This document shows, piece after piece, positions 14,164 to 15,401 of a stretch of DNA of 21,952 nt; within the stretch, counting starts at the first letter, position 1; every line of letters starts with the position of its first letter. Made by a program: the position numbers and the translations under genes. The stretch lies in UHGV virus genome UHGV-0246870; one strand, written 5' to 3'. Source of the stretch: a virus. Under the pieces are notes generated by a model. That model searched no databases and had not been told where the DNA came from. It saw nothing but the letters and a program-made list of their open reading frames with translations.

Positions 14164-14346
14164 TCAGTTCTGCATACACTGCCGAACACCGTCGACAATT
14201 TCACAGACCTGAGAAGCAGTATCGAAAAGCTGGCGCGCCTTATCCAGACTGACGCATCCCACCAATAAAAAAGGCACCAGTATCGCTACCAGTGCCCATT
14301 TCGCCGCCGTTCGCGGCATTCTGTGTGTCCAGTGTTTTCTGCTCAT
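14164..14346 (-). CDS. Small lipoprotein (lysis-associated; spanin-like position)
   Basis: 60 aa from ATG 14346 (SD AGGTG): basic N-region, hydrophobic core WALVAILVPFLLVG, then Cys (lipobox-like LVGC). Mature part about 29 aa with 3 Cys. Starts 15 nt after the endolysin stop. Confidence 0.5.
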   Translation of the reverse strand: MSRKHWTHRMPRTAAKWALVAILVPFLLVGCVSLDKARQLFDTASQVCEIVDGVRQCMQN

Positions 14347-14360
14347 AACACACCTGGTTA

Positions 14361-14747
14361 TCAGCGTTTCAACTGAAAGTGAGGTCCGTCTTTCAGTGTT
14401 TTCCAGTCCCCGCCCCATTCGATGGCAGTCCCCAGCTCTGCGGCAGCCTGCTTAAATGCCTGCGCGATTTTCTCGTACAGAGGCCAGTCCCATGAAACCT
14501 GGCTGCCAATGTAGGCCACAACATCCACCGCATCACCTGTAAGGTGGCGGCTGTTCATGGTCTGGCTTTTCCCTTCCGCGACCAGCTGTTTCTGGCGATA
14601 CTTACTGCGCAGACCTTCCGTGATACCAAAATCAACCTCCGTCAACTCAAGAGCACGGCGAACGACAGCAACCAGCTGTGGTTTGACGCCCTCCAGATTT
14701 TTTTCACTGCGACGGCTGAATCTGAATTTACCCGGCATCATATTCAC
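14361..14747 (-). CDS. Endolysin, peptidase M15 family (L-alanyl-D-glutamate peptidase type)
   Basis: 128 aa with SRHLTGDAVD and DGPHFQL motifs (Zn-binding His/Asp pattern of VanY/M15 peptidases). Lies in the lysis cassette after two membrane proteins. Confidence 0.8.
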   Translation of the reverse strand: MNMMPGKFRFSRRSEKNLEGVKPQLVAVVRRALELTEVDFGITEGLRSKYRQKQLVAEGKSQTMNSRHLTGDAVDVVAYIGSQVSWDWPLYEKIAQAFKQAAAELGTAIEWGGDWKTLKDGPHFQLKR

Positions 14748-15019
14748 CTCAACAATGGAAAGATTTTTGTGACGTTCCCACGCGCGCGTATCACCAGCAC
14801 GCAGAACAGCAGATTAAAAAACACTTCCAGCCAGCCCGTTGCTAACGGGCGACCACACAGATAGCTGAGTGGAGCAAAGCCATAAAGCAGCATCAGCAGC
14901 CAGGCCAGCCATGACATCAGCGGTTTGTGTCTGGAGTCACGGCGACGATAAAAAAAGAGCGTCAGCACGATAACCGTGCATAACGCCACATTCAGCAATC
15001 CGGGAAAGTTACTTAACAT
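14744..15019 (-). CDS. Small membrane protein (holin/antiholin-like)
   Basis: 91 aa from ATG 15019 (SD GGAGGAGG). Two to three hydrophobic segments. Overlaps the endolysin start and the upstream gene end. Confidence 0.5.
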   Translation of the reverse strand: MLSNFPGLLNVALCTVIVLTLFFYRRRDSRHKPLMSWLAWLLMLLYGFAPLSYLCGRPLATGWLEVFFNLLFCVLVIRARGNVTKIFPLLR

Positions 15020-15401
15020 TGCCGCCTCCTCCGCCACGCAGACGGGAGAACAGGCCGGACACCAGTGATGCAATATCCTGCTGGTGGATGAATGACAGAA
15101 TCTTCACCGACACCACTGACACCAGTACTGCACACAATGCGTCAACAGGTGCACCGTCAAACCCTGTATGCTTTACCAGCCAGGATGCCAGAACCTCTGC
15201 GCCCAGCACGCCGATAATGAACGACACCAGAAAATGCGCCGCCACACGCCAGGCTGAAAGCGCCTGCGGCATCGTTGCCACAAATAACGCCCCGGCGAAC
15301 GCACCAAACACAATCCCGAAATCCGTTCCGGTAAACAGCCCGAATACTGTCGCCCCGCCGAGCGCCGCAGCCGTGCCGGAACCGGACAAGGGTTCAGACA
15401 T
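15009..15401 (-). CDS. Putative holin (Gly/Ala-rich multi-TM membrane protein)
   Basis: 130 aa with AGGAG SD 8 nt upstream. Several Gly/Ala-rich hydrophobic helices and a charged C-terminus. First gene of the lysis cassette. Confidence 0.5.
   Translation of the reverse strand: MSEPLSGSGTAAALGGATVFGLFTGTDFGIVFGAFAGALFVATMPQALSAWRVAAHFLVSFIIGVLGAEVLASWLVKHTGFDGAPVDALCAVLVSVVSVKILSFIHQQDIASLVSGLFSRLRGGGGGNVK

Follow-up and report, generated by a model that had tools for sequence, protein, structure and literature searches.

The analysed stretch, 21,952 nucleotides (nt) of the virus genome UHGV-0246870 and referred to here as the window, carries a lysis cassette of four genes on the minus strand, the last of which encodes a lipoprotein of 60 amino acids (aa) in the position usually taken by a spanin. 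An open reading frame (ORF) check of the window confirmed all four genes (Table 1). A first-pass annotation had described two membrane proteins of 130 and 91 aa, an M15 peptidase endolysin (128 aa) and the 60-aa lipoprotein, in this order, as a lysis cassette, and the Pfam and PHROG matches bear this out. In a hydropathy scan the 130-aa holin-family protein had 3–4 hydrophobic segments and the 91-aa holin, whose gene overlaps that of its neighbour by 11 nt, had three transmembrane (TM) segments. The endolysin showed no TM segment and no signal or signal-arrest-release (SAR) sequence, hence it needs a hole-forming holin. Its RefSeq relatives are annotated at 125 aa, and the relative in phage pPE4 as an L-alanyl-D-glutamate endopeptidase. 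The lipoprotein ATG lies 12 nt past the endolysin stop codon (TGA, 14361–14363), so that with the 60-aa start the two genes do not overlap, and the lipoprotein gene lacks a promoter-like site.

Judged by its neighbours, the cassette belongs to a lambdoid late operon. Upstream are the antiterminator gene Q, an N6/N4 methylase and genes for tRNA-Thr and tRNA-Gly (16116–15963), and downstream, two conserved short ORFs precede the genes of a DUF1441 small terminase and a GpA-type large terminase. As Q lies upstream on the same strand, the cassette was assigned to the late operon; the same gene order is found in L193, a record apparently of the same prophage. With Phage_holin_8, Phage_holin_3_7, an endolysin and a PHROG 7528 lipoprotein downstream of Q and tRNA genes, the cassette is of the phiP27 type, a gene order shared by hundreds of Escherichia coli prophages. 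The closest phage is the Stx2e phage phiP27 itself, with 94% nucleotide identity across the cassette.

Table 1 Positions of the lysis cassette genes and associated features in the window
Feature	Position	Strand	Basis
Holin-family membrane protein, 130 aa	15009–15401	-	Pfam Phage_holin_8, E 1.2e-22; PHROG 198 'holin', E 8e-43
Second holin-family protein, 91 aa from ATG	14744–15019	-	Pfam Phage_holin_3_7, E 1.3e-22; PHROG 217 'holin', E 1.6e-38
Soluble endolysin, zinc peptidase M15, 128 aa, GTG start	14361–14747	-	Pfam Peptidase_M15_4, E 1.6e-12; PHROG 465 endolysin, E 9e-76
Shine-Dalgarno-like AGGTG, 4 nt 5' of the lipoprotein ATG	14351–14355	-	Read from sequence
Prolipoprotein 'LIPO', 60 aa, last cassette gene, usual spanin position	14164–14346	-	No Pfam match; PHROG 7528 (unknown function), E 7e-39
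Signal peptide, residues 1–30: basic n-region, h-region ALVAILVPFLL, lipobox L-V-G before Cys31	14257–14346	-	Alignment
11-bp RNA hairpin and U-tract, terminator-like, within the signal-peptide coding region	14262–14297	-	Terminator scan
Mature lipopeptide, 30 residues including the lipidated Cys, CVSLDKARQLFDTASQVCEIVDGVRQCMQN	14167–14256	-	Alignment, motif in distant members
Group of three terminator-like hairpins, immediately upstream of the 130-aa holin gene	15427–15602 (15602–15583, 15553–15536, 15442–15427)	-	Terminator scan
Antiterminator Q, upstream	20777–21142	-	Pfam Phage_antitermQ, E 3e-45

The prolipoprotein consists of MSRKHWTHRMPRTAAKWALVAILVPFLLVG followed by CVSLDKARQLFDTASQVCEIVDGVRQCMQN, with cleavage before Cys31. 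Its n-region, MSRKHWTHRMPRTAAK, is basic and bears a conserved HWTHRxPR motif, and the lipobox is LVG/C (residues 28–31, Cys31 codon at 14254–14256). As had been noted in the first pass, the mature part is short (29 residues plus the lipidated Cys), contains three Cys and ends without a C-terminal TM segment: the only hydrophobic stretch of the protein is signal peptide residues 17–30, and the C-terminus (...VRQCMQN) is polar. Besides the lipidated Cys, the mature lipopeptide has two Cys with C-x8-C spacing. This pair is conserved in all subfamilies, although intramolecular and intermolecular bonding are indistinguishable from the sequence. The +2 residue is Val here and V, A, T, S, G or E throughout the family, but never D, hence sorting to the outer membrane is predicted. 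AlphaFold2 (AF2) run on the family alignment gave a single long helix with a predicted local distance difference test score (pLDDT) of 66, and a published table gives 83% helix for the phiP27 copy (Kongari et al. 2018, BMC Bioinformatics 19:326, PMC6139136). The mature lipopeptide has a net charge of -1 and a helical hydrophobic moment of 0.32; across the family the charge ranges from -4 to +3 and the moment from 0.2 to 0.4, marginally above that of shuffled sequences. The protein matches nothing in Pfam (E ≤ 1), NCBIfam or PADLOC, a PDB sequence search with the family profile returned chance matches only (E ≥ 0.025), and its RefSeq name is 'hypothetical protein'.

A word-indexed search recovered 160 clusters of the lipoprotein, all from Enterobacterales and with the lipobox and Cys nearly invariant, and when 1.84 billion representatives were searched exhaustively with a profile, no more than 23 clusters at 50% identity came up. 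Diverged members come from Enterobacter, Mangrovibacter and Cronobacter, together with a second E. coli subfamily of 184 sequences. Nearly all of 120 homologues among the matches listed have the lipobox, and residues R3, H5, T7, H8, R9, P11, L19–P25, L27, L28, G30 and C31 are invariant in the alignment. Mature parts share the motif C-x3-4-[ED]-x4-[WL]-[FL]-x-[VLTA]-[AM]-x-[DEQ]-[VT]-C-x8-C followed by a short tail, and the lipobox and both extra Cys are kept down to ~45% identity in Escherichia, Salmonella, Citrobacter, Cronobacter, Enterobacter, Mangrovibacter and Yersinia. Polymorphism marks the ORF as a genuine gene under purifying selection, the ratio of non-synonymous to synonymous polymorphism (pN/pS) being 0.22 in the mature part and 0.26 overall (65 distinct alleles). 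It is also common: among 5,426 complete E. coli genomes, 878 have a match to part of the region, and 262 carry the segment comprising the end of the endolysin gene and the lipoprotein gene at ≥80% coverage, one of these being the laboratory strain E. coli W.

The n-region of the precursor (14299–14346, minus strand, residues 1–16) is unusually long and basic, with a pN/pS of 0.33. Its HWTHRxPR motif persists even in an E. coli subfamily with a different hydrophobic core, so that the cytoplasmic end of the precursor may itself have a role.

Genomic context was surveyed in a census of 104 distinct IMG/VR loci carrying the lipoprotein, classified by what precedes the gene. The gene forms the end of the lysis cassette in all of these loci, and among the related loci examined nearly all have it as their final lysis gene. 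It starts ≤30 nt from the endolysin gene, the arrangement of the window, in 49 loci; in 49 it directly follows a small TM ORF whose stop codon lies a few nt before the lipoprotein start (~4 nt for tm37), and in six it follows another insertion. The small TM ORFs found between endolysin and lipoprotein are tm37 (MKGIEMETPASLDLTRAAAFAIRLVAVAVLIWAVRWW), tm60 and tm44, none of which is in the window and none of which has a match in Pfam, NCBIfam or PADLOC. They lie, for example, at 2793–2906 of L003, 2662–2996 of L005 and 3506–3640 of L170; in tm37 a short, acidic N-terminal tail is joined to a TM segment at the C-terminus. All three could be lysis regulators or partners.

The partners of the gene within the cassette vary. 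The holins that accompany it are either the Phage_holin_8 and Phage_holin_3_7 pair or a lambda-S-type Phage_holin_3_1, and the endolysins are of the M15, GH108 with PG_binding_3, or CHAP class. Its backbones include lambda-like tails (the window, phiSTEC1575-Stx2k), contractile tails (phiP27, pPE4) and Mor/DUF1804 Mu-like prophages. The lipoprotein stays with the lysis module, whereas holins, endolysins, packaging genes and tails around it are exchanged. This independence of endolysin, holin and tail type makes an enzyme-specific regulator or a receptor-masking protein unlikely. We hence rejected a regulator or inhibitor specific to M15 endolysins (the lipoprotein also lies behind GH108 and CHAP endolysins), an antiholin specific to the holin pair (it also lies behind lambda-S-type holins) and a tail-linked receptor-masking or exclusion lipoprotein (four different tail/backbone types).

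A partner for the lipoprotein has been proposed in phiP27, which is listed among the phages with a 'separated' two-component spanin, made up of an inner-membrane component (i-spanin) plus one in the outer membrane (o-spanin); the phiP27 pair, with 62 periplasmic residues in total, is the shortest known in a survey range of 62–300 (PMC6139136). The supplementary tables of that survey give the i-spanin as 20348–20542 (64 aa, 32 periplasmic) and the o-spanin as 20706–20861 (51 aa, 30 periplasmic). The o-spanin is the orthologue of the window lipoprotein (93% identical), which is thus already catalogued as a putative o-spanin (Kongari et al. 2018); what is new is that its published partner is not conserved. 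The 'i-spanin' is a TTG-start ORF within a ~470-bp insertion between the endolysin and lipoprotein genes (L001 4215–4690, ~20197–20672 of the phiP27 record). In alignments this insertion is missing from the window and from an avian pathogenic E. coli prophage, and it occurs in three of the 5,426 complete E. coli genomes. Furthermore, the strand opposite the ORF encodes a conserved 90-aa ORF with a match to PHROG 36812 (E 5e-20), whereas the 'i-spanin' ORF itself matches nothing. As the insertion is rare and absent here, the 64-aa ORF is not a conserved partner of the lipoprotein and was rejected as such, and the published phiP27 spanin assignment looks wrong.

Searches for any other partner gave the same picture. 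A six-frame scan of the whole window found no second lipobox ORF, no ORF with an N-terminal TM segment and soluble domain except the prolipoprotein itself, whose signal peptide was picked up, and no candidate i-spanin ORF embedded in or overlapping the lipoprotein gene, in keeping with the earlier claim that neither Rz/Rz1 nor a unimolecular spanin is recognisable. In the 89 distinct loci with enough flanking sequence, a scan for type II membrane ORFs and second lipoproteins returned only out-of-frame artefacts, and lambda-type Rz was detected in none of the 104 lipoprotein loci. A canonical spanin elsewhere in the prophage had been named as the finding that would refute the first reading. None was seen in the window, neither the early region of L193 nor the tail region of close relatives contained a spanin family, Phage_lysis included, and the three complete phage genomes carrying the lipoprotein (phiP27, pPE4 and phiSTEC1575-Stx2k) have no annotated or detectable spanin.

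The lipoprotein resembles an o-spanin in part. It has an N-terminal lipobox signal and a +2 residue compatible with the outer membrane. However, no cognate i-spanin is embedded, overlapping or adjacent in the window, the 89 loci or the three phage genomes, only 29 residues follow the lipidated Cys, with no partner, against the surveyed range of 62–300, and it belongs to no described o-spanin family, being a singleton in Table 4 of Kongari et al. Since a 29-residue tether is too short for the periplasm and no partner is encoded, two defining features of two-component spanins are lacking.

Canonical Rz/Rz1 genes were found in a sister cassette. L170, from porcine enterotoxigenic E. coli and present in at least nine genomes, shares its two holins and M15 endolysin with the window; after these come a KilA-N gene, tm44 and Rz (Pfam Phage_lysis, E 1e-38) with a proline-rich Rz1 embedded in it, and there is no lipoprotein. 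In L005 the lipoprotein follows tm44. As tm44 precedes Rz/Rz1 in the one and the lipoprotein in the other, both occupy the same slot. The first-pass annotation had left two alternatives, a compact outer-membrane lysis factor or an unrelated lipoprotein. Because the gene stays with the lysis module and shares its slot with Rz/Rz1, the comparative context favours the former, and from this context we infer a lytic role. Overall, that reading of the cassette was largely right but is not proven.

Within the signal-peptide codons lies a terminator-like element, an 11-bp hairpin and then UUUUUAUU (14297–14262), with a folding energy of -22 kcal/mol and a z-score of -4.7. Synonymous diversity (pS) is lowest here, 0.08 compared with 0.24 in the mature part, and subfamilies with mature parts diverged to ~50% identity still have nearly the same hairpin nucleotides. 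Watson-Crick pairs take the place of two G-U wobble pairs of the stem in L006, in L096 one substitution gives a weaker stem, and in L006 and L169 the recombination junction coincides with the 5' edge of the hairpin. The Mu-like lipoprotein subfamily has a different h-region sequence. The hairpin may be an intrinsic terminator passed only by Q-modified polymerase, which would confine the lipoprotein to late expression. The 12-nt spacing from the endolysin, the gene's own Shine-Dalgarno sequence, the missing promoter-like site and the position past Q all point to coupling with the late lysis genes, and a terminator-like hairpin inside the gene would restrict its expression to antiterminated transcripts. 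The same features (no promoter-like site, 12 nt behind the endolysin past Q, the internal hairpin) make an autonomous moron expressed in the lysogen unlikely, and this identity was rejected. The trio of hairpins before the first holin gene is as expected 3' of a Q-antitermination-dependent late promoter.

The lipoprotein shares features with several known systems. Like Rz1 of the lambda Rz/Rz1 pair, it is a small lipoprotein with a 60-aa precursor and periplasmic Cys residues, encoded at the cassette end and predicted to be expressed late and sorted to the outer membrane; unlike that pair, it has no embedded, overlapping or adjacent i-spanin. The mature part of lambda Rz1 is 40 aa, proline-rich and unstructured, whereas that of the lipoprotein is 30 aa and predicted to be helical; the two have no sequence similarity (no Pfam match), and the lipoprotein is unable to span the periplasm. 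The unimolecular spanin gp11 of T1 also combines an outer-membrane lipoprotein signal with a single gene in the spanin slot, but it has a C-terminal TM domain that anchors it in the inner membrane and a long periplasmic domain. The lipoprotein has neither, and a unimolecular spanin was ruled out as it has no C-terminal TM domain. The disruptin gp28 of phiKT is, in the description by Holt et al. (bioRxiv 10.1101/515445), an antimicrobial peptide of cationic type. It too is a single small helical amphipathic protein that replaces the spanin in a spanin-less coliphage; however, it is cationic, whereas the present family has net charges of -4 to +3 (-1 here) and the peptide is lipid-anchored via the lipobox, hence a disruptin-like cationic peptide was ruled out by charge. 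Colicin lysis proteins, or bacteriocin release proteins (BRPs; Pfam Lysis_col), and entericidin B are likewise very small lipoproteins with mature parts of ~30 residues. This is resemblance only and not homology, with no Pfam match to Lysis_col or entericidin at E ≤ 1; moreover, BRPs have no extra Cys, are not predicted to be helical and lie in colicin operons, not in phage lysis cassettes. Expression of BRPs permeabilises the envelope, and the outer-membrane phospholipase is activated by them, so that a lytic lipopeptide acting alone has a precedent.

We propose that the lipoprotein is a lysis factor of the outer membrane, expressed late and acting alone, which performs the outer-membrane step or makes it possible, a reading to which we give a probability of roughly 45%. 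In a Q-dependent late lysis cassette of the phiP27 type, the two holin-family proteins would open the inner membrane, after which the soluble M15 zinc peptidase could reach and cut the peptidoglycan. The prolipoprotein would pass through Sec, receive its lipid at Cys31 and be sorted to the outer membrane, leaving a mature part that is a putative 30-residue lipid-anchored helix with two further conserved Cys. It would then perform, or be needed for, the third step of lysis, the breach of the outer membrane. It would do so unaided, after loss of the wall and from the inner leaflet of the outer membrane, probably as a disulfide-linked oligomer and not as one of two halves of a fusion complex that spans the periplasm.

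Several observations weigh against this proposal. The mature peptide is not cationic and only moderately amphipathic, hence the mechanism of the phiKT disruptin is not obviously applicable, and the AF2 helix model is of low confidence. The small TM ORF just upstream of the gene in approximately half of the loci could be a partner that has been lost from the window. L006 (with one identical record) and L169 contain Rz/Rz1, an ais-like gene on the other strand and also an intact lipoprotein ORF, a co-occurrence seen in three E. coli genomes; in these copies the native n-region has been replaced, and the ORF has a GTG start behind an AAGGG Shine-Dalgarno-like sequence. Cassettes in L058, L061, L062 and L074 have neither lipoprotein nor spanin, and the lipoprotein copies of L011, L028 and L066 are frameshifted, which suggests that the gene may be dispensable or that these prophages are decaying. 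A literature search for the lipoprotein and for phiP27 lysis found no experimental work.

The lipoprotein could instead be a true o-spanin with an unrecognised inner-membrane partner, namely a periplasmic loop of one of the holins, a host envelope protein, or the C-terminally anchored tm37/tm60 lost from this cassette. In favour of this are its classification in phiP27, its two conserved periplasmic Cys, intermolecular disulfides being general in spanins (PMC6139136), and the tight placement of a small TM ORF ~4 nt before its start in 49 of 104 loci. However, the window and as many loci again (49 of 104) have no such ORF, and tm37 would add only ~16 periplasmic residues to the 29 of the lipoprotein, far under 62–300. 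Since tm44 also precedes the canonical Rz/Rz1 of L170, it is not a lipoprotein-specific partner, and the occurrence of the lipoprotein with two unrelated holin systems makes a holin-loop partner unlikely. We regard an o-spanin as improbable on this evidence. Even less credence, very little in all, is due to the idea that the ORF is incidental and its peptide functionless, the conserved element being the RNA hairpin and U-tract as a terminator or recombination boundary. The strength of the hairpin, the retention of its nucleotides where the mature part diverged and the junction of L006 and L169 at its 5' edge would all fit, but the low pN/pS of the mature part is found downstream of the hairpin, and the lipobox and C-x8-C are kept in distant genera and in the second E. 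coli subfamily, in which the h-region differs.

It is somewhat easier to envisage, if still unlikely, that the lipoprotein is a late accessory protein that is not needed for outer-membrane breakage, acting for example in lysis timing, against readsorption to debris or in superinfection exclusion, and that these phages have no dedicated outer-membrane step. Small outer-membrane lipoproteins with exclusion roles are known, such as Llp of T5 and Cor of phi80. The co-occurrence with Rz/Rz1 in L006 and L169 is consistent with an accessory role, as are the cassettes with neither lipoprotein nor spanin and the ~13% of phages in the published survey that have no identifiable spanin (Kongari et al. 2018, PMC6139136). 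Against this, independence from the tail and receptor module across four backbones is contrary to receptor masking, and independence from endolysin class and holin system is contrary to a specific regulator. The gene also lacks a promoter-like site and follows closely on the endolysin gene, the protein has no PADLOC match, and Rz/Rz1 replaces it in the same slot of L170.

There is a fair chance that the lipoprotein is a new kind of outer-membrane lysis factor. Going further, the 30-residue lipopeptide may tentatively be set beside the spanins and the cationic disruptin as a third class, by mechanism, of phage protein for outer-membrane lysis, although we consider this broader claim rather less than an even bet. 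Such a class would consist of a Cys-bearing anchored helix that breaches the outer membrane alone, with no bridging to or fusion with the inner membrane, and that can be combined with varied holins and endolysins across Enterobacterales phages. Of the steps by which phages lyse Gram-negative hosts, outer-membrane breakage is the least understood and, to our knowledge, the phiKT disruptin is the only spanin alternative shown experimentally. The lipoprotein is frequent in E. coli, including Stx2e and Stx2k phages, is of a length that can be synthesised and comes from a tractable host. If it does breach the outer membrane alone, it would provide a new minimal mechanism and a 30-residue lipopeptide lead for outer-membrane sensitisation; if not, these Shiga-toxin phages release particles and toxin with no dedicated outer-membrane step.

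The interval with the tRNA genes and the three hairpins, upstream of the first holin gene (15427–16116, minus strand), corresponds to the position of the stx2 genes in phiP27 and phiSTEC1575-Stx2k; in the window there is no toxin gene here, only a doubtful 114-aa ORF with a GTG start. In phiSTEC1575-Stx2k (L166, 19848–20412) a class II holin gene, apparently a remnant of another lysis module, lies just 5' of a complete phiP27-type cassette; the phage has no Rz. The lysis region of 'Actinobacillus phage vB_Apl-pPE4' (L167, PP818812.1) is ~90% identical to E. coli prophage DNA, and the record also bears the typical E. coli prophage genes ydaT, Hok, TerB and DicA; the host it names is doubtful.

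Between the lipoprotein and the small terminase, the two small conserved ORFs (13528–13743 and 13867–14076, minus strand) encode proteins with no TM segment, which belong to PHROG 4298 (Cys/His-rich, 71 aa) and PHROG 3909 (69 aa), both of unknown function, and have no match in Pfam, NCBIfam or PADLOC. A bidirectional terminator-like hairpin (13488–13508) follows them. Between Q and the late genes, a low guanine-cytosine (GC) island (17934–20768, 34–37% GC) lies on the opposite, plus strand and is also present in L193–L195. It codes for a 596-aa AAA_15/AAA_21 ATPase, with best PADLOC matches to HEC-04, ATPase-Toprim, AriA, PtuA and GajA, and for a 346-aa C5 cytosine methylase, and is probably a prophage-borne defence or modification module.

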